Assembly: GCF_965204145.1 (NCBI RefSeq)
Contig: NZ_OZ241977.1
Span: 1,754,887-1,818,886 of the forward strand
DNA length: 64,000 nucleotides
Direction of reading: 5' to 3'
DNA from: Candidatus Poriferisocius sp.
GTDB lineage: Bacteria; Actinomycetota; Acidimicrobiia; Acidimicrobiales; Bin134
Part shown: positions 47,241-61,028 of the stretch, in pieces
How the letters are laid out: each line of letters opens with the position of its first letter
How positions within the stretch are numbered: position 1 is the stretch's first letter
Translations under genes and position numbers: made by a program
Notes under the pieces: generated by a model
Seen by the model: only the letters and a program-made list of their open reading frames with translations
The model's database searches: none
What the model was told of the DNA's origin: nothing

Positions 47241-48410
47241 ATGAGCATTGAGCCGTTTGAGATCGACGTCCCCCAAACCGACCTAGACGACCTGCACCGG
47301 CGTCTGGCCATGACCCGCTGGCCCGACACGGTGCGTCCGGGCTGGGCCGACGGCGCCGACGTGGCCTACATGCGGGAGCTTTGCGAGTACTGGGCCGACG
47401 ACTACGACTGGCGGGCCCGCGAGGCCTATCTCAACGCCTTTCCCCAGTTCACCGCCACTGCGGCCGGTGAGCGGGTGCACTTCTACCATGTGCGCTCGCC
47501 CGAGCCCGACGCCCTGCCCATGGTGCTCATCCACGGGTACATGGGCTCGGTGGTGGAATTCCGCGAGATGATGGGCCCGCTGTCCGATCCGGCAGCCCAT
47601 GGCGGGAACCCGGGCGACGCCTTCCACGTGGTGGTCCCCTCGCTGCCCGGCTACGCCTTCTCCGGACCCACCGCCAACCCCGGCGTGGACATGCACCACT
47701 GCGCCGATGCCATCGCCGGGGTCATGGAGCAACTGGGCTACGACCGCTACATCGTGCAGGGGGGCGACTGGGGGGCGCTGGTCACCCGGCGCATAGCCGA
47801 GGCCTACGGCGACCGGCTCATCGCCGCCCACTTCAACATGCTCTTCGCCCAACCCACCGCCGAAGAGGCCGCCGACCCCGAGAAGATGATGGACGGAGTG
47901 ACCGAGGCTGAGCAGGCGGCCCAAGCCAGGATGATCGAGATGATGGCCGGCGGCACCGGCTACATGGCCATGCTGAGCACCAAGCCCCAGACCCTGGCCG
48001 TAGCCCACAACGACTCCCCCGCCGGTCTGGCCGCCTGGTTCGTTGAGAAGTACCAGCACTGGTGCGACCTGGACGACGGCGACCTGGAGAGCGTGTTCAC
48101 CAAAGACCAGCTGCTCGACAACGTGATGCTGTACTGGACCACCGCCACCGCGGCGTCATCCGGGCGGCTGTACCTGGAGTCGGCCCGCAAGGGGACCTCG
48201 GCGCTCGACCCGTGGGCCGGCCAGATCACCGTGCCCACCGGCCATGCCGTCTACCCCCGGGAGCTGCTGCAAACCCCGCGGGCATGGGCCGAGCGCCGCT
48301 ACAACATCGTCCACTGGGCCGTGCAGCCCAAAGGCGGCCACTTCGCCCCCTTCGAGCAGCCCGAGCTGTTCACCGACGACCTGCGGACCTTCGGCCGCCT
48401 GTTCCGCTGA
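47241..48410 (+). CDS. Epoxide hydrolase (EHN family)
   Basis: EHN-type N-terminus, GGDWG, GGHFAPFEQP. Confidence 0.9.
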   Translation: MSIEPFEIDVPQTDLDDLHRRLAMTRWPDTVRPGWADGADVAYMRELCEYWADDYDWRAREAYLNAFPQFTATAAGERVHFYHVRSPEPDALPMVLIHGYMGSVVEFREMMGPLSDPAAHGGNPGDAFHVVVPSLPGYAFSGPTANPGVDMHHCADAIAGVMEQLGYDRYIVQGGDWGALVTRRIAEAYGDRLIAAHFNMLFAQPTAEEAADPEKMMDGVTEAEQAAQARMIEMMAGGTGYMAMLSTKPQTLAVAHNDSPAGLAAWFVEKYQHWCDLDDGDLESVFTKDQLLDNVMLYWTTATAASSGRLYLESARKGTSALDPWAGQITVPTGHAVYPRELLQTPRAWAERRYNIVHWAVQPKGGHFAPFEQPELFTDDLRTFGRLFR

Positions 48411-48418
48411 ACAGCCCT

Positions 48419-50170
48419 TCAAATCACAAGGCCGCTGCGGCGGTCCACCGTTCGATGGTCCTTTTCGATGATCGCGGTCACGTAGCTGAGGTCGAGCCGA
48501 CTGAGGTTCCAGTGCGAACGGAAGCCGTGGCGGAGCAGTTCGAGGTAGAGCAGACTGGGGCTGGATTCGGCCTGCCCAGAGAGATGCCGTCGAACGATCT
48601 CCTCCACGGCGGTCTCAGGAGGATCGACCAGTTCGCCAGCCACACCTTCAGCAGCGCGCATGGTGAGCATCAGGTCGAGTGTGGCTGTGTTCTCGAATCC
48701 GGATGCAAGCCCCTTCACTGAGCGTTGGCCCTTGTCCAGCATGGCGATGAGTTCCGGGACTACCTCCAGGCCAGCGGCTGCAATGGACCGCTGGAGTAGC
48801 TGCCACACCTTTCCAGAGCTGTTGCCGAAAAGCAGGGTGATGAACCCTCCCGGCTTCACAATACGGAGGCACTCTCGCAGGGCATCAGTCATGATCTGCT
48901 CGTATCGCTCAGCAGTCCGGACGGCGCCAGTGTCTACTCGGTCGATTACTGCCTCCTTGTCCGGGTCGGTGAACTCCGATAACCAGGCCTCTTGAAAGAG
49001 GTTCATGTCCGAGTAGAAGATATTGGCCCCGAAGGGCGGGTCGGTAAATACGTAGTCGACCGAATGATCTTCGATTGGCAGGTCATCGGCGCTCGCGCGC
49101 TGGTAGCTGATGCCATGATCATCTTCAGGGACCCAATTGAGACGAGTCCGACGTTCTGCGGCGATCCACCGGTCGGAGCGGATTGCAGCCTCGACCTTCC
49201 TGCTGAAGAGGTCGAAGACGTTCCACTCGTAGAACACCGGGGCAACGTAGTAATTGGCGTTTGCTGCATTGAGCGGGCGCTGACGGGACCACTGGTACCG
49301 CTTGCTCGCCCTGGTCAATATGGCCGTGAAGGCAAACCGCAGCTTGTCACGCAGGTCTGCTTCATCAACCTCGTCGATCCCGGCGCGTAGTGCAGCAAGA
49401 GCACAGAGATTGCGTTGAGAATAGAAGGAGGCCACAGATGTCAGACCGTGTCGACCAAGTGCAGAGGCAACATACATCTGACGAGACTCTTCGATGTCCA
49501 CATCAGGCCACATCAGACCGGACGAGTCGGCTTCCTGAATCGCTGGTCGATGGGCCTGCTCTATCTGGGTCCGAGAGCAATCACAGGCAATCGAATCCAC
49601 TACTGGCCTCTCATGGAGCCGCTGGCACCTACTCGAAACTGCCGCACCGCAGCCAGGGCAGGCCATCTGGGTCTTCTTCCAGTCGGCTGCTTCCAAGCAG
49701 TAGTAGAAGTTGAAACCTTGCCCGCAGGCTGGGCACTCCATGACCGCCGACCAAACCGTCTTGGCGATCTCTGCGTTGTCCCCGCAGAGTCCGCACTTCA
49801 CGGCATACACCTCCCCAACACGCTTTCTCGCTTGATCGATGACCTCATCGGCCCTCTTGCGCAAGTGTTCTTCCGACACCTGGTTCACGTAGTTGGTCCC
49901 AATATGTCGGCCGAGCGCCGAAACGTCGTACAACCGTGCTCTCCGACCAGTCATGAGCGCGGCCACTCCAGTCATCCCCGAGCCTGCGAATGGGTCAAGT
50001 ACGATTTCACCCTCTCGGGTGAAGGCCTCAATGAACGGCACGATGCCCGCCACCGGTACTTTGGTCAGGTACGCGTGGGCCATGTACACCGGGTCACTGC
50101 GCTTGACTGCAACCATCGACGGCAGGGCGGGAAGCCCGGTTTTGCTCACAACCCCGACCTTACCCACCAT
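48419..50170 (-). CDS. Amino (N6A/N4C) DNA methyltransferase with Zn ribbon
   Basis: YLTKVP, motif I DPFAGSG, several CxxC, motif IV DPPF; start uncertain (50170 vs 50215). Confidence 0.85.
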   Translation of the reverse strand: MVGKVGVVSKTGLPALPSMVAVKRSDPVYMAHAYLTKVPVAGIVPFIEAFTREGEIVLDPFAGSGMTGVAALMTGRRARLYDVSALGRHIGTNYVNQVSEEHLRKRADEVIDQARKRVGEVYAVKCGLCGDNAEIAKTVWSAVMECPACGQGFNFYYCLEAADWKKTQMACPGCGAAVSSRCQRLHERPVVDSIACDCSRTQIEQAHRPAIQEADSSGLMWPDVDIEESRQMYVASALGRHGLTSVASFYSQRNLCALAALRAGIDEVDEADLRDKLRFAFTAILTRASKRYQWSRQRPLNAANANYYVAPVFYEWNVFDLFSRKVEAAIRSDRWIAAERRTRLNWVPEDDHGISYQRASADDLPIEDHSVDYVFTDPPFGANIFYSDMNLFQEAWLSEFTDPDKEAVIDRVDTGAVRTAERYEQIMTDALRECLRIVKPGGFITLLFGNSSGKVWQLLQRSIAAAGLEVVPELIAMLDKGQRSVKGLASGFENTATLDLMLTMRAAEGVAGELVDPPETAVEEIVRRHLSGQAESSPSLLYLELLRHGFRSHWNLSRLDLSYVTAIIEKDHRTVDRRSGLVI

Positions 50171-50233
50171 GGGTGACAGTAACGGGTAATGCGCCGGTAC
50201 ACTCCCGGCAGTCATGAGTGCAGGCAGTACCTA

Positions 50234-51703
50234 GTGGGCTTCAAAGAGGACGCAGACTTCGCACGCTTCGTATCGGTGGGCGCAATTGGAACTGCCTCGG
50301 TGGCCGACCACCTTCAAAATCAGCTCAATCATCAGCCGATTGAGCTCGAGCGCTATGCCATGGCCAACAAGGTTTGGCAGACGAAGGTCAAGCGGCTGCG
50401 GCTGCCTGATCTGTTGTGTGTGCGGTGTGGCTTGAGAGTGGAGTCGAGGGCAAAGTCGAAGCTCAAAATCATGCTGTCGCATTCGGATACGCCCGGCCGA
50501 GAGTGGGACGCGGGTGGAATGCGCCAGGATGACCTGTTCGCGTTCCTCCACACCGACATCAACCAGGATCCGCCGCATTGCGGCGCTCCCATCTTCTTTT
50601 CGACTGAGGCACTCCGAGCCAGCATCGCGCAAGCCAAGAGATCGGCACCGAAAGCAGCATCGGAAGGGTCCGAAATCACCCTCACATGGCCCTGTTGGGT
50701 TCCGACCAAACGAGGGCAGTATCTCGGTGTCGACGATGAAGACCGGATCGTGTTCTCAGGCGTGGACGAGAAAGTTCAGCGATACTGGCAATGGCGAGAT
50801 TGGGGTGGTCCGAGATTTATCTACTCGGAACCGGGAGATTTCATAAGGGGCGGCGAACAAGTTCTCGCTGGAGTCGCCGAACAGACTTCCAACCCAATGT
50901 GCTCGGGAGACTCATGGGACTTGGCCGCGGCCCTACACTCCAGCGAGGCCGTCGAGCGGTATGCAGCGGTCAAAGCAGCAGGATCAATGGAGCTTCGCGA
51001 ACTGTTCAGCACCCTGTCCAGTATGAGCAGCGACTCCAGCGAAGATTGGAGAGTCCGACTTGAGGCTCAGATCGCTCTAGCTCGGCTCGAACCCGACCCT
51101 TGGGTCAGGAAAATCACGGACCAGATTTCAGACACCGAGACTGAAGCCGATCAAAAGATGGAGGCAGTCTTGGCAATGTCCGAACTCCCGTCTGAAGCAG
51201 CGGCCATTGCTCTTGATCGGATTGCGGCGAAAACAGACCTTCCAAATGAACTGAGGGCGGCAGCAGCTTGGGGACTGGGACAAGGGGCAGCGCGGAACCC
51301 AGAATTGCTGATCGACCACTTCGTCGATCCGGACCCCATCATCGCTCTGCACGCAATTTCTTCCGTAGATGAACTCTCAAGTGATCTGCAGCGGAAGCTC
51401 GTCGGATGGATGGCCGAAGAAGGGGTGAACCGGGCTTCTGCTGCCGCCCAACTCCTTCAACGCCACGGCTGTGTCGACTCGCTTCTAGAAGCCACGCAAT
51501 TTGGCGACAACGCTCGCCTATGGGCACTTCGAGCACTGGGAGAATTGCCCCCGGCATTGGTCAGGTGTCTAGCCGGAAGCCGACTAACTCCCGATATCGA
51601 ACAGGTACTGCGCCCGATGTGGTTGGGACAGGACGATTGGCTCAGGCAGGACGGCAAAGAGGGTCTCGACGCCCTCGATGTTCAAAAGATCCGGTTCCGC
51701 TAA
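50234..51703 (+). CDS. Putative PD-(D/E)xK-like nuclease fused to HEAT-like repeats
   Basis: PDLLCVRCGLRVESRAK at the N-terminus; repeated R..AA.AL helices at the C-terminus; divergent from the MTase; GTG start inferred. Confidence 0.6.
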   Translation: MGFKEDADFARFVSVGAIGTASVADHLQNQLNHQPIELERYAMANKVWQTKVKRLRLPDLLCVRCGLRVESRAKSKLKIMLSHSDTPGREWDAGGMRQDDLFAFLHTDINQDPPHCGAPIFFSTEALRASIAQAKRSAPKAASEGSEITLTWPCWVPTKRGQYLGVDDEDRIVFSGVDEKVQRYWQWRDWGGPRFIYSEPGDFIRGGEQVLAGVAEQTSNPMCSGDSWDLAAALHSSEAVERYAAVKAAGSMELRELFSTLSSMSSDSSEDWRVRLEAQIALARLEPDPWVRKITDQISDTETEADQKMEAVLAMSELPSEAAAIALDRIAAKTDLPNELRAAAAWGLGQGAARNPELLIDHFVDPDPIIALHAISSVDELSSDLQRKLVGWMAEEGVNRASAAAQLLQRHGCVDSLLEATQFGDNARLWALRALGELPPALVRCLAGSRLTPDIEQVLRPMWLGQDDWLRQDGKEGLDALDVQKIRFR

Positions 51704-51722
51704 GCGTCGACTGGACTGATCG

Positions 51723-52283
51723 CTACGCGAATCGGGCGGAGCGCATGGCCAGGAGATCGCCGTCGGATGCCTCTAGCACCTCGCGGGCCTCGTCGGGGCC
51801 CTTCATGCGCAGCGGGCAGGACACGACTACGTCCATCACCTGGTTGAGCCGGCCGAAGGCAATCCAGCAGCCGATGGCTAGGGTCATCTCCACCACCAGA
51901 TCTTCGCCGAAGTGCCCGACCATGCGGTCCATGAACTTCTGGTCGATGGACAGGTGGTCGACCGCGAATTTCTCCGCGTACTCCAGAGCATCGCGCTCGG
52001 CTTCGCTGAAGCCGTCGTATTCGTTGCGATTTCCGACGTTGAGGTAGTCGTCCTCGCTCAGTTCATATTGCGCCAACGACGCAATGCGGGTGTCCAGTCA
52101 AACCACGCATTCGTTGATCTGGGCGATCCTCATCCGCAGCAGCTCCCGCAACCGCACCGGGAGCTTGCTCTCGTTGTACACCGCGCCGCTGAACGCCGAT
52201 GCCGGTCCGGACAGCGCCGGGGTCATCATCCACAGTCGGTGCAGCTCCTCTTCGGGGCCATCGGGAATCCGAATTCGTGCCAT
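51723..52283 (-). CDS. AhpD/carboxymuconolactone decarboxylase family protein, probable selenoprotein (CxxU)
   Basis: Two ORF-track pieces are in one frame, joined through TGA 52098-52100 in RELLRMRIAQINECVV*LDTR; C-terminal half has ERDALEYAE and VEMT CMD-like motifs. Confidence 0.8.
52067..52085 (-). promoter_or_regulatory. Putative bacterial SECIS hairpin
   Basis: AUUGCGUC-GUU-GGCGCAAU, starting 12 nt after the UGA; loop begins with GU. Confidence 0.6.
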
Positions 52284-54083: not shown

Positions 54084-54506
54084 TCAGCCACCCGCCCAAG
54101 GGTCGATGAGGTCGACTGCCATGCCTTCGAAGTGCCGGATGTTGCGAGTTGCCACGGCCATGTCGCGAGAACGGGCGATCGCCGCGATCTGGCCGTCGGA
54201 CTGGGAAACGGGACGTCCATCTGCCCGGCAGGCAGCAGCGATGCCGGCGTATGCGCGTGCCGCATCACTGTCAAACGGCAGCACACGACCAGCGAAGACC
54301 TCACGCAGCATCGCCTCAACCTCAGTTTCCAGGGCGTCTCGACGCCGGCCCGCAGGCATTATGGCAATGCCATAGAGCAACTCCGCCTCGCTCACTGCGG
54401 AGAGGAACATGGTGGTTGCTGCGCGCTCTGCCACCCATGCTTCAACTGCTGAATCCGGCAACGGGCGCATCAATTCAGAGACAACGTTGGTGTCGAGAAC
54501 AATCAC
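54084..54506 (-). CDS. vapC: PIN-domain toxin (VapC/FitB-like)
   Basis: IVLDTNVVSE, DGQIAAIA, ATRN..HF. Confidence 0.9.
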   Translation of the reverse strand: MIVLDTNVVSELMRPLPDSAVEAWVAERAATTMFLSAVSEAELLYGIAIMPAGRRRDALETEVEAMLREVFAGRVLPFDSDAARAYAGIAAACRADGRPVSQSDGQIAAIARSRDMAVATRNIRHFEGMAVDLIDPWAGG

Positions 54507-54516
54507 CGCTCCTGCC

Positions 54517-54759
54517 TCATTCGAAACGAGGCGGTTCTGGCATGGCCTCTCTTGGGGGCAATTCCAACTCCACCCCCCCGAGATGGGCAAAGCGTTCGCG
54601 AATTGCAGCAGCAAGATCGGTGGGGCCCACGTCCTGCTCAACGGCGTCGCGCAAGATCAAACGGGCCTCCTCTTCCATTGAACGCCCGTGGCTGGCCGCC
54701 AGTACACGGAGCCGCTTCTTCACTTCATCGTCAAGATTGCGAATGGTGATGCTCGCCAT
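54517..54759 (-). CDS. RHH antitoxin (FitA-like)
   Basis: MASITIRNLDD..K.RLR..AA.HGRSMEEEAR.IL. Confidence 0.9.
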   Translation of the reverse strand: MASITIRNLDDEVKKRLRVLAASHGRSMEEEARLILRDAVEQDVGPTDLAAAIRERFAHLGGVELELPPREAMPEPPRFE

Positions 54760-54849: not shown

Positions 54850-55002
54850 ATGGCTGAACTCGCAGTAATCATCCACGGCGAGCGGGCCGGAACGGTCTCA
54901 GACGGCAGGGACGGGCGGGCGCTTTTCTCCTACAGCGGCGAGTACCTTTCAGGTGGCTGTCTTATGGGGTGGGGGCCTGGGGGGTGGTTTGGGGGCCTTT
55001 GA
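54850..55002 (+). pseudogene. Truncated HipA N-terminal domain fragment
   Basis: Hand translation MAELAVIIHGERAGTVSDGRDGRALFSYSGEYL resembles the HipA N-terminal subdomain; runs into the end of the large gene. Confidence 0.55.
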
Positions 55003-58000
55003 TTCTTATCCATTGGCTGGAGTGGGGGCTGTCTTCGCCGGTTCTGGGGCCGGTGAATGAGCGGACGAACACGCCGGTGGGGACGCCGTTTTGGAGGCCG
55101 GTGATGGTATAGGCGGCGGTGCCGCCCTCGACGACGATGCCGTCGTTGTGGTGGCCTCTGGGCCCGGCTGGGTTGGCCCAGACTCCGGCGACCTGGCTCC
55201 AGCGCAGGGCGTGGCGGATGTCGTCGTCGGCCTCGCCGGCTCGCGGCGACACGATCCAGGTGATGGTGAGGGTGCCGTCGCCGGGCACGGCCTGGACGTT
55301 GAACGGCTCGAGCCTGCCGTCGCCGGGATGCTCGGGCTGCGGGTCCTCGGGCTGCGGGTCCTCGGGCTGCGGGTCCTCGGGCTGCGGGTCCTCGGGCTGC
55401 GGGTCCTCGGGCTGCGGGTCCTCGGGCTGCGGGTCCTCGGGCTGCGGGTCCTCGGGCTGCGGGTCCTCGGGCTGTTGGGGGAGGGTGGTGGTGTTGTGGG
55501 TGCGGGGGCCTTTGCCGGTTTCGTTTTGGGCTCGTACCCATATGTTGCAGGTTGTGCCGGGTTTGAGGTTGCGGAAGGTGGTGGTGGTTTTGGGTGCGTC
55601 GACGGTGCGGTGTTTGCCGTTTCTGCCGCATCTGATGTGCGCGATGTAGTGGTCGGGGGCGCCGCCGACAGCGGGGGGCTGCCAGGAGACGGTCACGTTG
55701 CGCGGTCTCGCGGCCAGCGACAGGCCGGTCACCGCCCCGGGCGCCTCGACGGTCGTGTCGGCGACCGCGACCGACACCGAGTCGACCGCGATGGCGTCGT
55801 ATCGGGTGTCGCTGCTTGTGGCCTGGTGGGTGACGGTGGCGGTTTCGTCGTGGGTGTCGGGGTCGGCCACCCCGGTGACGGTGAAGGTCTGGGGGGTGTC
55901 CCAGTCGGCGGGGGTGAAGGTCGCCGACGCGGGCGACACAGTTGCGGCGGCGGGGTCGCTGCTCTCAGGGGTGATGGTGACGTCGTGGGCGGGTCTCGCG
56001 TCCAAAACGGCGGTGTAGGTGGCGGTTGTGTTCTCGTCGGTGTTGAGCGTCAGCGGTGTGACGGTGACCGCGGGCGGCTCCGGGACGGGGTCGGTGGTGG
56101 TGGTCAGCGTGTAGGTGGTGGTGGTGTAGGCGTCGGCGGCGGTGACGGTGACCTCGAACGCGACGGGCTCATGGAAGGTGTAGCCGGTGCTCAGCGACCA
56201 CCAGCCGATGCCGGTGTTCCAGCCGGGGGCGGTGAAGGTCGCCTCGGGGTGCTGCGTGCGGATCTTGGCCAGCACGGAGATGTAGGGGGCCTGCTGTGCG
56301 GTGTGGTGGATGGTGTAGTCGGCGGTGTCGGGGTCGAACGCGGGAGACAGCGCCCACCCGTCGGGCAGAGACAGCGATGCGAGGCGGGCGTTGTCGGACT
56401 TGCCCGGTATGGGCTTTCTGGGCTTGTCGCGCTCGCGCTTTTCCGCCGCGGTCTTCTCCGCGGCGAGGCTGGTCGGTCTGGCCTCGGCCGCGCCGGGGGG
56501 CGCGCCGGTGTCGTGGTTCAAGATCGTGATGACCATCCCGCGGCCCTCGAACCCCTCGGCTGTGGGTTTGACGATGATGGTCTCGCCGCTGTCCTCGTGC
56601 GCGTCGTCGACGATGCGCAAAAACACCCGGTGGTAGCCGGTCTCGCCCTCGGCGAAGAACACATAGGGCGCCGTGGTGACCTTGGCCTGCCGGTCGGGCG
56701 GCACGAACGGGTCATAGGAGTTCAGCCACTCGTAGTCCACCCCCGCGGTCGCGGTGCTCGCCGGGTCCACCTCGAGCTCGACCCGCAGCCCGCCGGGCGG
56801 GGCGGGCTCGCTGATCCAGATCGGCAGCGAGTAGAACGCCCCGGCGGGCTCGTCGGGGTCCTTGCCCCTGACGTCGACGATGCTCCCCGCAGGCGGGGTC
56901 TCGCGCACGTGCATCGGGAACGCGCCGAGGCGGTCGGGCCGGTTCGTGGTGGACTCCATCCACAGCAGCGGCGTGTACACCAAAGCCAGGTCCGCCGTGT
57001 CGCCCGCAGACCAGCCCAGACCGGCGCCGGACCACGCGAACAACATGGGGGCGCGGCCCAAGACGGCCTCGTAGTTGTAGGACTCGCCGGTGAGCAGCGG
57101 AAACACCTCGCCGTCGACGACCAGCGACAGGAACATCCACTCGCCCAGCACCGACTCCAACGCGAAGCTCAACGTGCCCGCCCCCGAGTCCTGATGGGCC
57201 AGAGTGCTCGAGCCCAAGTGGACGTAGTGGCCCGAGCCGAGGTTGACATAGGCCACGCCGACGGGCGAGCCCCGGAAGGCCACCCTGCCCGCCGACATCG
57301 CCGACGAGCAGACCGGCCCGGTGCGGGAATCGCCGGGCGCGCCGCAGCCCACCGCGGACGCCGAGCGGCCGTGGCCCAGCCCGAACGACACCTCGCCCAC
57401 CGTCAGGTCCGACTCCCACACCACCCGCTGATTTGCCGGAAGCACCCGCACCGCCACCGGCGACGACCAGAAACTCGGCCCCTCCGCATCAGAGGCCCGC
57501 ACCCGCACCACATAGCGGCCGTAGGTGTCCAGCCCCGCGATCCGCTCCGTCGTGCCGGTGCCCGAATGACCGGTGTCCACCCAGCCCGTAGCAGGATCGC
57601 CCGCCGTCGTCGCCGCCCGGTCCGGGGCGCTTTGGCGCCTGTACTCCACGTCATAGCCGACCACCGCGAAATCAGGGTCGCTCGGAGCGGTCCACGACAC
57701 GTCGATCGTCCCCTCGGAGGTCTCCAAGGTCAGCCCCGTCGGGACGGTGCCCAGCTTGATCTGGAGCTGCACCACCTGCCCCTCCGCCCACGCCGGGCCG
57801 CCGCTCCACTGCTTGGAGTGATCGGCGTCGGTGACGTCGGGATTGGCGAACGGGAACTGCGCATCGCCCACCTGGAGCACATAGGCCCTCAGCCCGGCGG
57901 GAAACACCGGCCCGGCATCGCTAATCACCAAAGACAGGGCGCCTGCGTTGACCGAAAGCGAACTGATGCCGTAGGTCGCGCCGTCGAGGACGAAGTCGTT

Positions 58001-60871
58001 GTCCTCGATCACCGGCGAGCCGACGTTCTGGCACGACAGCGGCGACGTCGCGCCGCCGGGGAGATGGCAGCCGAAAAACCCCGCGCCTAGATCGGCCACC
58101 ACGAGCTTCGCGGCCCAGATCGTCCCCTCGGGCAGCGGGATGGCGCGCACCGCATCAGACCAGCCGCCCGCGCCCTGCGTGTTCGCCGCCAGCACCCGCA
58201 CCTCGTACTGCGTCAAATTGGCGAGACCGGCGATCACCAGGGACAGCCCCGACCCCGCCGGGGCCACGCGCCCCGCCGACACCCACCCGTCAGCCGGGTC
58301 GCCGGTCGGGTTGTCCAGCCGGTCCGGCGCGGCGCGCTCCTTGTACGACACCTGATAGAAGACGATCGCCGAACCCCCAACATCGCCCGGCGCCCGCCAC
58401 GACGCCGTCAACTCCCCGTCCCCGGCCGCAACCGCCAAACCGGCCGGAACGCCCGGCGTCACCAAAGACTTCAGAATGCGCAGCTCCACCGACTGGCCCG
58501 ACGCCCACTCGCTCCACACCAAACCGCTCACCAGCCACTGCACATCGGTCGAATCCGCCAGGCCCTCGACGAACGAGAACTCAGCATCGCCCACCACCAG
58601 CGTGTAATCCGACCTGAGACGACTCTCGGAGATGTCGGTGAAGAACTCCAGGCGGAGGTGATTCGGGCAGGGCGACATGCTGTCGTCACCGCAATTGGAC
58701 TCGTACTCCAGCCTCAGACTCGTAATCGAAAAATCGTTCCCCCCGGTCTCGAAGGTGCTGTCGGTCAGCGCCGTGGAGCACGCCGACGCGCCCGAACCCC
58801 CACAGCCCCGCGTGCCGGTGCCTAGGATCACGGCTGAGACCGTCTTGGAAGTCAACGTCGCCGACCACACCTCCCGCTGACGCGCCGGCGCCCCAGACAC
58901 CACCGCGCTCCACGCGCCCGCGTCGATCGAGTTCACCGCCCGCACCCGCACGTCATAACCCCGGTAGTTCACCAGGCTCCCGCCCGAGGGCACCAGCTTC
59001 AAGCTGACCGCGCTGCCCGCGGTCAAGATCTCGTCTGCATGCGCCCACATGGCTATGGTGCCGCCGCCGCTGATCGTGGCGTCGGCCAGAGCGAACTCGT
59101 CGTCGCCCACATGCAGGACAGAGCCCTTGAGCGTGTCGCTGATGACGTTGTCGAAGGTGACCCACACATTCCTGGAGGAGCCGTACTGGGCGATGCGGGT
59201 GACCGAGAACGCCGTCCCGCCCAAGGTGAAGTCGTCGTCGGACAGCGTCGCCGCGGCAGTGCACTTGTTCGCCGCGGCCGACTCGGCGTTCTCACAGCCA
59301 ACGGCCGCGAGATTCCGGATGTTCTTGGGCGTCAGCGTCGCCTCCCACACCGGCTCCGGCTCGCCCAGCACAGCGGCGCGGATCCCCGTGCCCGAGTGCG
59401 GGACGGGCACCCAGCCGTCGCCGGGGCCTCTGCCGGCTGGGCTGCCGTCGCTGGTGACGAGCGACAGCCGGACCTGCTGGCCGTCGGTCCACGTCACGCC
59501 GGAGCTCGTCCAGCTGGTGGAGCTGAAGTCCCGGAAGGGCGACAGCGAGAAACGGGAGCCGCCGACGACCAGCGAATAGTCCGCGAGGTCACCGATATCG
59601 GTGCTGAAGCCCATCACCAACTCGCCGGTCGACGAACTGAGATCGAGCTCAATGACTGTGTACTCGACGCCGCCCAGGCTGAAGCCGGCATCGTCGAGGG
59701 CGACAGAACAGGCATCGAGGACGCTGAAGTCAGTGCAGCCAAAAAATTGCGCGCTGCGGTCCACGGTCAGCGTCGCTTCCCACAACACGTCAGACCCGCG
59801 GTCCGGCGCCGAGGACTCCTTGTACTGCACCTCATAACCGGTGACCTCCGAATCGCCCGGGTCGTCGGGCGGCTGCCAGTAGGCGTTCAGCCGCCGGTCG
59901 CCCGCCGCCGCGCCCACGCCCTTGGGCTTGTCGGGCGCCTGGGACGGCTCCAGGCGCATCTGCACCGCGGTGCCCGCGGTCCAACTCAAGCTGGAGCTCC
60001 ACTGGACGCTAGTGCCGGATTCGCCGGCCAGGGGGAACTTGTCGCCGCCCACGTGCAGCGTGTAGCCCGTGAGCGCGTCGGGGATACTGGCGCTGAACTC
60101 GACCTCCAGAAGCTTGGTGGAGTTCAGCACCCCGATGTAGGTGATCGACAGCGTCGTGCTGCCCAGCGTGAAGTTGTTGTCGTCGAGCGTCGCCGTGGTG
60201 CTGCACTTGTTGGCCGCAGTCGTATCGTCGGTGTCACAGCCCAACGCCAAGTTGTTCACGATGCTCTTGGGCGTCAGCGTGGCCTCCCACAGGATCGAGT
60301 CGTCCAGGATGAATAAATCCTGGCTCGACGCCGCGCTGTCCACGGTGTAGGGCTCGCCCGCGACCGCGGTCATCAGGAACCGGACGGTCTCGTTGCGGCC
60401 CTCGAAGCCGCCGTCGTCGTTGACGTAGTCCGCCACCGCGTGCACCGTGAAGGAGGCCTGGGCCGCTCCCGCCGGCAGCACCAGATGGCCGCTGGCGTCC
60501 AGCCCCGACACCGTGTAGTCCTCAGGAGAGGTGGCGTGGTCGCTGCTGTGGGTGATCAGCACACGGCTGTCAGAGGCCAGCGCCGGGCTGATATTGACTG
60601 TGAACGTTATGTCGGTGCCCTCAGAGGTGATGACGGTGGACTCGTGGAACCTCAGCGTCGAGGCCGACTGAGCCGCCGCCGGACGCTCAGCAGGCGCCAG
60701 CAGCCCCGCGAACACCCCCAGAACCATCAACAGCGCCGCCAGCGTCCGGGGTGCCCCCGCGAACCGCCTCACCCGCCGGACCACCATCACGCCCCGACGA
60801 CGCATATCGGGGGGGGGGGGGGTCACTGCAACAGAACCCGACACAGCACGCCGCAAACGAAGAAACGACAT
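54962..60871 (-). CDS. Large secreted/surface protein with Calx-beta-like, FN3, cadherin-like and six Cys-pair repeat domains
   Basis: Signal-like segment ending AAAQS; FN3 motifs (W..P..G.V.GY; Y.VRV.A.N..G.G.WS); ~1970 aa from ATG 60871 (start uncertain). Confidence 0.85.
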   Translation of the reverse strand: MSFLRLRRAVSGSVAVTPPPPDMRRRGVMVVRRVRRFAGAPRTLAALLMVLGVFAGLLAPAERPAAAQSASTLRFHESTVITSEGTDITFTVNISPALASDSRVLITHSSDHATSPEDYTVSGLDASGHLVLPAGAAQASFTVHAVADYVNDDGGFEGRNETVRFLMTAVAGEPYTVDSAASSQDLFILDDSILWEATLTPKSIVNNLALGCDTDDTTAANKCSTTATLDDNNFTLGSTTLSITYIGVLNSTKLLEVEFSASIPDALTGYTLHVGGDKFPLAGESGTSVQWSSSLSWTAGTAVQMRLEPSQAPDKPKGVGAAAGDRRLNAYWQPPDDPGDSEVTGYEVQYKESSAPDRGSDVLWEATLTVDRSAQFFGCTDFSVLDACSVALDDAGFSLGGVEYTVIELDLSSSTGELVMGFSTDIGDLADYSLVVGGSRFSLSPFRDFSSTSWTSSGVTWTDGQQVRLSLVTSDGSPAGRGPGDGWVPVPHSGTGIRAAVLGEPEPVWEATLTPKNIRNLAAVGCENAESAAANKCTAAATLSDDDFTLGGTAFSVTRIAQYGSSRNVWVTFDNVISDTLKGSVLHVGDDEFALADATISGGGTIAMWAHADEILTAGSAVSLKLVPSGGSLVNYRGYDVRVRAVNSIDAGAWSAVVSGAPARQREVWSATLTSKTVSAVILGTGTRGCGGSGASACSTALTDSTFETGGNDFSITSLRLEYESNCGDDSMSPCPNHLRLEFFTDISESRLRSDYTLVVGDAEFSFVEGLADSTDVQWLVSGLVWSEWASGQSVELRILKSLVTPGVPAGLAVAAGDGELTASWRAPGDVGGSAIVFYQVSYKERAAPDRLDNPTGDPADGWVSAGRVAPAGSGLSLVIAGLANLTQYEVRVLAANTQGAGGWSDAVRAIPLPEGTIWAAKLVVADLGAGFFGCHLPGGATSPLSCQNVGSPVIEDNDFVLDGATYGISSLSVNAGALSLVISDAGPVFPAGLRAYVLQVGDAQFPFANPDVTDADHSKQWSGGPAWAEGQVVQLQIKLGTVPTGLTLETSEGTIDVSWTAPSDPDFAVVGYDVEYRRQSAPDRAATTAGDPATGWVDTGHSGTGTTERIAGLDTYGRYVVRVRASDAEGPSFWSSPVAVRVLPANQRVVWESDLTVGEVSFGLGHGRSASAVGCGAPGDSRTGPVCSSAMSAGRVAFRGSPVGVAYVNLGSGHYVHLGSSTLAHQDSGAGTLSFALESVLGEWMFLSLVVDGEVFPLLTGESYNYEAVLGRAPMLFAWSGAGLGWSAGDTADLALVYTPLLWMESTTNRPDRLGAFPMHVRETPPAGSIVDVRGKDPDEPAGAFYSLPIWISEPAPPGGLRVELEVDPASTATAGVDYEWLNSYDPFVPPDRQAKVTTAPYVFFAEGETGYHRVFLRIVDDAHEDSGETIIVKPTAEGFEGRGMVITILNHDTGAPPGAAEARPTSLAAEKTAAEKRERDKPRKPIPGKSDNARLASLSLPDGWALSPAFDPDTADYTIHHTAQQAPYISVLAKIRTQHPEATFTAPGWNTGIGWWSLSTGYTFHEPVAFEVTVTAADAYTTTTYTLTTTTDPVPEPPAVTVTPLTLNTDENTTATYTAVLDARPAHDVTITPESSDPAAATVSPASATFTPADWDTPQTFTVTGVADPDTHDETATVTHQATSSDTRYDAIAVDSVSVAVADTTVEAPGAVTGLSLAARPRNVTVSWQPPAVGGAPDHYIAHIRCGRNGKHRTVDAPKTTTTFRNLKPGTTCNIWVRAQNETGKGPRTHNTTTLPQQPEDPQPEDPQPEDPQPEDPQPEDPQPEDPQPEDPQPEDPQPEDPQPEHPGDGRLEPFNVQAVPGDGTLTITWIVSPRAGEADDDIRHALRWSQVAGVWANPAGPRGHHNDGIVVEGGTAAYTITGLQNGVPTGVFVRSFTGPRTGEDSPHSSQWIRIKGPQTTPQAPTP
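55331..55474. repeat. 15-bp tandem repeat CTCGGGCTGCGGGTC x9.6 (encodes PEDPQ x9)
   Basis: Perfect head-to-tail units inside the large gene. Confidence 0.95.
60809..60822. repeat. G14 homopolymer (C14 on the coding strand)
   Basis: Counted directly; encodes TPPPP in the N-terminal leader. Confidence 0.9.
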
Positions 60872-61028
60872 CACTTCAAACTCCCGATCCGTTATCAAGG
60901 CCGCGAACGCAACCCCAAACTCCAACAGGCCCCAAAGCCCGCCCAACACCAATTCTATCCCACAAAACCCCAACACCACGCCAACCGACGGACACGCACG
61001 CCACTGCCCTCAGACGCGTTCGCGGGTG

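Follow-up and report, generated by a model that had tools for sequence, protein, structure and literature searches.

The window analysed here is a stretch of 64,000 nucleotides from Candidatus Poriferisocius sp. (Acidimicrobiales; contig NZ_OZ241977.1, positions 1,754,887 to 1,818,886, forward strand), and all positions given below are counted from its first letter. Within it lies an island with two divergent open reading frames (ORFs), one at 48419..50215 on the minus strand (598 amino acids, aa, in its longest form) and one at 50189..51703 on the plus strand (504 aa in its longest form). The first encodes a DNA methyltransferase (MTase) and the second a predicted nuclease that is fused to HEAT repeats. 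Together they probably form a self-contained Type II-style restriction-modification cassette with a new nuclease architecture. The pair had been singled out by a sequence-only reading of the same DNA and, as a whole, that observation was confirmed, the motifs being invariant across 45-46 homologues down to 36% identity. The features of the island are listed here, each with its basis; the MTase motif residues follow the 598-aa numbering and the nuclease motif residues the 489-aa numbering.

48409..51721, no strand: the island, a two-gene cassette that genomes either have as a whole or lack (blastn breaks against same-genus genomes, GC content).
48419..50116, minus strand: DNA methyltransferase gene, 565 aa from M34 (ATG at 50116) (Pfam, PADLOC, homologue starts).
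49031..49042, minus strand: MTase motif IV DPPF (catalytic), residues 392-395 (motif match).
49577..49795, minus strand: four Cys pairs of the MTase, CGLC 141-144, CPAC 161-164, CPGC 186-189 and CDC 211-213 (motif match).
49976..49996, minus strand: MTase motif I DPFAGSG (binding of S-adenosylmethionine, SAM), residues 74-80 (motif match).
50117..50233, no strand: divergent intergenic region, 117 bp with the MTase start at M34.
50234..51703, plus strand: gene for the nuclease-SBHM-HEAT protein, 489 aa, GTG start (homologue lengths, AlphaFold2 model, AF2).
50234..50653, plus strand: predicted PD-(D/E)xK-type nuclease domain, residues 1-140 (AF2 fold matches, invariant residues).
50405-50455, plus strand: nuclease motif, PD 58-59, CVRC 62-65 and ESRAK 70-74 (motif match).
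50654..50920, plus strand: predicted barrel-sandwich hybrid (SBHM / biotinyl-lipoyl-like) domain, residues ~141-229 (structure comparison).
50921..51700, plus strand: acidic HEAT-repeat solenoid, residues 230-489, ~8 helix pairs in the predicted structure, with a conserved C-terminal tail (Pfam, AF2, Foldseek).

The island is a discrete unit of 3,313 bp that encloses exactly the MTase and nuclease genes, with no third gene. Homology to three same-genus genomes in blastn ends at 48408 and restarts at 51722, and at these empty sites the flanking genes lie 4 bp (L129, L130) or 133 bp (L131) apart. The pair had been described as less GC-rich than its flanks, which is borne out by a GC content of 0.56-0.60 over 48500-51750 versus 0.66-0.72 on either side. 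It had also been described as head-to-head with a gap of about 60 bp. The divergent arrangement stands; the gap depends on the MTase start and is 63 bp with M16, whereas the favoured start at M34 gives 117 bp and the longest ORF 18 bp. M34 is favoured since a Met in several homologues aligns about three residues upstream of it and a close orthologue at NCBI has 565 aa. For the nuclease, the GTG start at 50234 fits the lengths of the homologues (more than 863), which are mostly 489-502 aa. A promoter consensus of the sigma-70 type was not found in the island by a scan that covers that type only and is uninformative for a high-GC actinobacterium.

The MTase matches Pfam N6_N4_Mtase at 3.5e-17, above the cut-off. 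Its best PADLOC match is the Type II model MTase_II PDLC03312 (8.4e-95), followed by PglXI of BREX type 3 (2e-79). The N6_N4_Mtase match is split: residues 47-103 align with the C-terminal portion of the profile, and MTase models align again at ~364-400. The motif order is therefore permuted (motif I, insert, motif IV). Motif I, several CxxC pairs and then DPPF had been named in that order, and all of them were found so. DPFAGSG is present in 69 of the 70 homologous loci in which the pattern detected both motifs, and DPPF in 70/70 loci in which the motif pattern matched; the sequence YLTKVP lies at residues 49-54. A D-P-P-F motif IV suggests N6-adenine methylation. All eight Cys of the four pairs are invariant or at least 90% conserved (45 homologues), and their spacing suggests two zinc ribbons. 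Among close relatives identity is 93-100% in the catalytic blocks. The variable parts are the zinc-ribbon region, a short stretch near 361-390 and the C-terminus. The variable middle region, which includes the Cys pairs, is probably responsible for target recognition.

The nuclease gene is annotated at its source as 'hypothetical' or 'HEAT repeat protein' in the homologues. Its N-terminal domain carries the PD-x10-ESRAK motif with an embedded CxxC that had been read from the sequence, at residues 58-74. E37, E39, D59, C62, C65, E70 and K74 are invariant in 46 nuclease sequences, down to 36% identity. In the AF2 model the domain consists of a helix at 6-31 and strands at 35-37, 60-62, 68-74, 79-84 and 101-108. 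The model of residues 1-235 (46 sequences) has a predicted local distance difference test score (pLDDT) of 86.3 and a predicted template modelling score (pTM) of 0.86; the full-length model has a pLDDT of 91.4 and a pTM of 0.87. D59 opens strand 60-62 and E70-x-[R/K]72-x-K74 lies within strand 68-74, so that the catalytic residues would be positioned as a PD-(D/E)xK fold expects. A structure search (VIA) over 48,161 representative PDB chains placed PD-(D/E)xK nucleases at the top for residues 1-140, namely I-Ssp6803I (Z 7.4), NhoI (Z 7.2) and Hjc (Z 7.1). Lower matches to this group were MspI (Z 6.3), DpnI (5.6), HhaI (5.6) and PvuII (5.3), and also ThaI. On a second pass over Foldseek candidates, Hjc reached Z 7.9, with 111 of 121 residues aligned at a root mean square deviation (rmsd) of 3.2. 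The domain thus models as a PD-(D/E)xK-type nuclease, as had been proposed, and the fold assignment is well supported but not proven. The core is basic, with a median isoelectric point (pI) of 9.5 in 46 homologues. H33, C62, C65 and C223 are all invariant in the nuclease homologues and could form a structural zinc site.

The family stands apart in sequence. Outside the HEAT repeats the nuclease matches no family in Pfam, NCBIfam or PHROGs and no PADLOC restriction-enzyme model, in line with the earlier view of the pair as a candidate undescribed system. The best hit of the N-terminal domain in a PDB profile search was an unrelated complex I subunit (E 0.024), and the ESM Atlas returned only HEAT-named clusters with scores of 0.76-0.79, below the lead threshold of 0.9. 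A search with the N-terminal profile yields 383 clusters at 50% identity. Among the best 150 matches listed, those of full length nearly always measure 470-525 aa, which indicates that the three-domain architecture is fixed. The nuclease most likely belongs to no described family.

Two further domains are predicted behind the nuclease core. Residues ~141-229, with the barrel-sandwich hybrid fold at ~150-216, resemble the SBHM domain of RNA polymerase beta (Z 8.1 over 59 residues, rmsd 2.4) as well as biotinyl and lipoyl domains (Z 6-7). The remainder is a HEAT solenoid. Pfam HEAT_2 matches at 4.1e-7 (30.6 bits versus a cut-off of 27.7), and this C-terminal half is the only part of the protein that matches a known family. 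AF2 places 16 helices between residues 239 and 483, in tandem antiparallel pairs that build a solenoid. The HEAT-like repeats reported earlier are therefore real, and their number is about eight pairs in the model rather than about seven. Foldseek on this region returned alphaRep (1.2e-6), followed by transportin and PP2A-A. The domain is strongly acidic in the 46 homologues (median pI 4.7, net charge -16, range -26 to +2), and so it suits protein contacts better than DNA reading. In the C-terminal tail L478, L481, Q484 and R487 are conserved. The HEAT and barrel-sandwich domains are the fastest-evolving part of the nuclease. Most likely, both mediate protein contacts (self-assembly or regulation) and not DNA reading.

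The two genes are strictly linked. In the search based on the nuclease, an MTase lies directly upstream and divergent in 42/42 loci, with 50-94% identity. These loci span several phyla and include Acidimicrobiia, Dehalococcoidia, Streptomyces, Nonomuraea and Corynebacterium. A nuclease homologue without the MTase was seen in 0/42 loci, as co-occurrence of the two genes would have it. The search based on the MTase gave 80 loci, and after de-duplication over both sets 85 unique loci were obtained. Both genes are intact in 53 of these 85. An intact MTase is accompanied by a partial nuclease in 12 loci and by a ~200-aa PvuII-family restriction enzyme instead of the HEAT nuclease in 11. Four loci have an intact MTase for which no partner was seen; two of these lie at contig edges and another next to a GmrSD-type gene. 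In five loci the MTase is partial, none of them beside an intact nuclease.

The position beside the MTase can thus be held by two kinds of enzyme. Six of the PvuII-family calls were made by Pfam PF09225 (4.8e-30 to 1.5e-6) together with PADLOC REase_II, and the other five by blastp. The MTases beside these enzymes are 50-56% identical to the MTase of the window. When partners were mapped onto a maximum-likelihood tree of 81 MTases, PvuII-linked and HEAT-linked MTases were found to interleave, and at least five changes of the PvuII label are forced by well-supported branches. For example, L027 (HEAT) and L111 (PvuII) are sisters with support 99, and L101 and L103 (HEAT) share a clade with L097 and L100 (PvuII), also with support 99. 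From this interleaved and well-supported tree it follows that HEAT nuclease and classical restriction enzyme have repeatedly taken each other's place.

Decay of the pair is one-sided: a broken nuclease beside an intact MTase occurs in 12 loci and the reverse in none. The broken copies require at least ten separate label changes on the MTase tree. In a close relative (L093) an insertion sequence has entered the nuclease gene near residue 268 (DDE transposase, PF13701, 1.1e-48, at L093:3658-5010) and the MTase is intact; four other breaks are deletions that leave only fragments, and a further copy is truncated close to the end of its contig. Such one-sided decay is what a toxic nuclease checked by a protective MTase predicts. 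One of the MTases without a nuclease partner (L079:2408-5427) lies beside a helix-turn-helix protein and a 757-aa protein with GmrSD_N plus Schlafen AlbA_2. The latter looks like a Type IV restriction enzyme and its context like a defence island.

Taken with the discrete island and the predicted fold, the linkage, the exchangeable partner slot, the swapping and the one-sided decay lead to the reading of the pair as a Type II restriction-modification cassette. MTase and putative endonuclease are encoded by separate adjacent genes in 42/42 loci. The MTase contains the SAM-binding motif I and the catalytic motif IV, and the predicted nuclease places its D...(D/E)-x-K residues on adjacent strands. 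No NTPase or other motor domain was found in either protein with Pfam and NCBIfam, and the two-gene island offers no ATP-dependent translocase or helicase subunit. The couple had earlier been called restriction-modification-like, and linkage, swapping and decay agree with this. It had also been put forward as a candidate undescribed defence system. Here the emphasis shifts, since the MTase lineage pairs interchangeably with this nuclease and with PvuII-family partners: the logic of the system, Type II restriction-modification, is already known, and it is the nuclease architecture that is undescribed. No paper on a restriction nuclease with HEAT repeats or on this pair was found in full-text literature searches; a listing in REBASE is possible.

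The proposed mechanism is as follows. The MTase would mark the host DNA, probably at N6 of adenine. The small basic PD-(D/E)xK core (D59, E70, R/K72 and K74) would then cut DNA without the mark, perhaps with a structural zinc site of H33, C62, C65 and C223 in the nuclease core. The fused barrel-sandwich domain and the acidic HEAT solenoid would serve protein contacts and not DNA reading. Indirect support for a nuclease that would cut at or near a defined site and be blocked by the cognate methylation comes from the one-sided decay and from the swapping with PvuII-family enzymes. An effect against phages may be expected from such a system.

Several observations weigh against this interpretation. 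A core of 140 residues with an acidic tail leaves the mode of target recognition unexplained. The matches to the alpha-beta-beta-beta-alpha-beta core fold of the PD-(D/E)xK superfamily are middling (Z 7.1-7.9), and according to the note of the tool a Z below 8 may reflect just a common arrangement. Foldseek on the N-terminal model gave no match at E <= 0.001, no Pfam nuclease family was matched by any of the 46 N-terminal domains (E <= 10), and hhalign of the N-terminal domain against the PvuII-type partners gave a probability of 1.1%. Position 72 of the putative active site varies: it is R here and in most Acidimicrobiia and K in Streptomyces and others. Among the 12 broken nucleases, five are frameshifts or stops in metagenome assemblies, possibly sequencing errors, and one (L040) is a cut at a contig edge. 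Moreover, each of the two locus searches favours intact copies of its own query. The decay asymmetry nevertheless survives a symmetrical design, as a broken MTase was seen in 0 of the 42 loci ascertained by the nuclease. Lastly, the nuclease of locus L002 is 96% identical to that of the window, yet the variable region of its MTase is 57-80% identical, which is awkward for two independent readers of the same site. Either the changes in the MTase are neutral for specificity, or the nuclease is not the sole reader of the site.

The alleles of the pair are mosaic among close relatives, as was seen when 48419-51703 of the window was compared with L001, L002, L003 and L046. Nuclease identity to the window is 96-97% in L001 and L002 and 86% in L003. 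MTase identity is 93% in L001 and 84% in L002 and L003, and the flanking genes are 92-95% identical. The mosaic pattern suggests recombination within the cassette.

Several known systems can be compared with the pair. The closest in logic is a Type II system with a PvuII-family endonuclease (PF09225): it likewise consists of two separate adjacent genes, uses the same MTase lineage and has a small PD-(D/E)xK nuclease without an NTPase. The nuclease of the window differs from the PvuII-type partners in that it shows no sequence similarity to them, matches their structure weakly (single-chain PvuII, Z 5.3) and carries ~350 extra residues (barrel-sandwich and HEAT). Its membership of the PvuII family was considered and rejected, given the absence of a PF09225 match at E <= 10 and the hhalign result of 1.1%. 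For residues 1-140 together with the returning segment, the closest folds are those of Hjc (2wcw), I-Ssp6803I (2ost) and NhoI (8q5n), whose core is similar in size. These enzymes share just 9-14% sequence identity with the nuclease in the structural alignments. In addition, the barrel-sandwich domain of the nuclease apparently interrupts the core ahead of its last element, a CxxC is found in the hairpin that joins the D and E strands, and the gene context is an MTase, not recombination or intron homing.

A likeness of the MTase to those of BREX had been remarked upon earlier, together with the absence of BREX genes. The remark has a basis. PADLOC PglXI (BREX type 3 PglXI / BrxXI) matches at 2e-79 over profile positions 189-609 of 919, and DUF1156 methyltransferase profiles match more weakly; the MTase of the pair has the permuted motif order in common with these enzymes. 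The best PADLOC match, in contrast, is the Type II model (8.4e-95). BREX type 3 was rejected as an identity for the system: no PglZ (PF08665) is encoded in the whole 3.57-Mb genome (one contig, 96% complete), and the island has two genes. DSR2 is alike in concept only, as an enzymatic effector fused to a HEAT-repeat region. In DSR2 this region binds a phage tail tube protein, the activator, and a phage inhibitor (PMC11263360). The effector of DSR2 is an NADase (Sir2) and that of the pair a predicted nuclease; DSR2 is not known to have an MTase partner. A sequence relationship between the two was not seen, although no comparison was aimed at one.

The role of the HEAT solenoid is where explanations diverge. 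We consider it rather unlikely that the solenoid gates the restriction nuclease as a sensor or docking platform, so that the enzyme would be licensed by a signal from an infection-derived or partner protein and not be constitutively active. A sensor-gated form is unlikely, in which contact of HEAT with a protein from a phage or another foreign source turns the nuclease on or off and the MTase is merely a safety device. It would agree with the acidity of the HEAT domain in nearly all homologues, unlike a DNA-binding surface, with the fast evolution of the HEAT and barrel-sandwich domains within the nuclease, and with the architecture, fixed at 470-525 aa in nearly all full-length matches among the best 150 listed. 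DSR2 provides an earlier case of a defence effector that carries a HEAT sensor (PMC11263360). The same MTase lineage, however, pairs with sensorless PvuII-family enzymes of 200 aa, so that gating is not required by the logic of the system. Nor were nuclease homologues found in phage or plasmid collections, and no partner protein of HEAT was identified. An improbable arrangement is that the nuclease docks via HEAT on the MTase, whose zinc-ribbon region would recognise the target for both, similar to Type III or Type I enzymes. The minimal nuclease core and the allele mix of L002 (96% identity in the nuclease, 57-80% in the variable MTase region) speak in its favour. HEAT distances also correlate with MTase zinc-ribbon and C-terminal distances (partial r 0.49 and 0.40) when the conserved core is controlled for. 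Rate-matched and quadratic controls, however, cut the partial r to 0.18-0.21, and the nuclease core gives 0.14-0.16, so the signal is not specific. Against docking it also counts that the MTase lineage functions beside independent PvuII-family enzymes and that ATPase and helicase domains of the Type I or Type III kind are missing from both proteins. Complex prediction of the MTase (568 aa) with HEAT residues 225-489 returned a score of 0.00, which counts neither for nor against binding.

It is very improbable that the pair has no role in defence, with the nuclease as a benign accessory of the MTase (comparable to the repair enzyme Vsr beside Dcm) or the pair as an epigenetic regulator of genes. 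Frequent loss of the nuclease with retention of the MTase would also be expected of a dispensable accessory. A benign accessory should sometimes outlive its MTase, however, and this was seen in 0 loci; the same slot is held in 11 loci by bona fide members of a restriction-enzyme family, and the cassette is a patchy, low-GC indel. The motif DPPF moreover suggests that the methylated position is N6 of adenine or N4 of cytosine. Such methylation gives rise to no T:G mismatch and counts against an accessory of the Vsr kind. The reading of the pair as a Type II-style cassette is the one retained here.

The distribution of the cassette is patchy. The nuclease was found in 5/301 sampled genomes of the order, this genome included, and in 0/6 other sampled genomes of the same genus, three of which are those with the empty sites. 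The family occurs in Dehalococcoidia and in sponge-associated Acidimicrobiia, and also in the cultivable genera Streptomyces, Nonomuraea, Corynebacterium, Microbacterium and Occultella. Homologues of the nuclease were not found in phage or plasmid collections. The symbiont genome of the window appears to be rich in restriction-modification systems: seven places in its 3.57 Mb match N6_N4_Mtase, seven match N6_Mtase and one a C5 methylase, in addition to others. Owing to these many other DNA methyltransferase genes, avoided palindromes in the genome are not assignable to the cassette.

About nine related genomes carry the pair at this location, flanked by an epoxide hydrolase gene (Pfam EHN, 3e-35) as the left neighbour of the island and by a small ORF at its right border, which is followed in the window by a PQQ beta-propeller protein:

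51723-52076, minus strand: ORF of 117 aa at the right island border (sequence, comparison with relatives).

This ORF has no match to a Pfam family and is 70-98% conserved among relatives, both with and without the island. The 8-base word GTTCCGCT at 48401-48408 closes the epoxide hydrolase gene immediately left of the island and is repeated at 51694-51701, at the end of the nuclease gene and ~20 bp before the right edge of the island. The repeat may be coincidental, or it may represent microhomology that took part when the cassette was gained or lost. The empty sites do not correspond to an exact excision. Farther to the right, ~2.4 kb from the island, a toxin-antitoxin pair is encoded at 54084-54759 on the minus strand, consisting of a PIN-domain protein (8.5e-14) that overlaps a FitA-like ribbon-helix-helix antitoxin (1.4e-20). 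It is followed by an ORF of 2,005 aa (54962-60979, minus strand) with about nine PEDPQ repeats in a run, many repeated modules and a strong strand-composition skew; this is probably a large surface or secreted protein.

If the Type II reading is true, a family of restriction nucleases has been missed by present annotation. An MTase of this kind would be scored as an orphan, since no PADLOC restriction-enzyme model matches the nuclease beside it. The family is of some size (383 clusters at 50% identity), and its presence in cultivable genera makes bench tests feasible. How restriction-modification systems replace partners as modules is cleanly illustrated in nature by the repeated exchange of HEAT nuclease and PvuII-family enzyme on one MTase lineage. 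With a minimal nuclease joined to an acidic HEAT solenoid, it may also be asked whether some restriction enzymes are regulated via a protein-binding module. Should the HEAT domain indeed gate restriction, the interest of the finding would rise from moderate to high: self-marking by methylation and protein sensing would be combined in one pair, and this would be the first restriction-modification system built in such a way.

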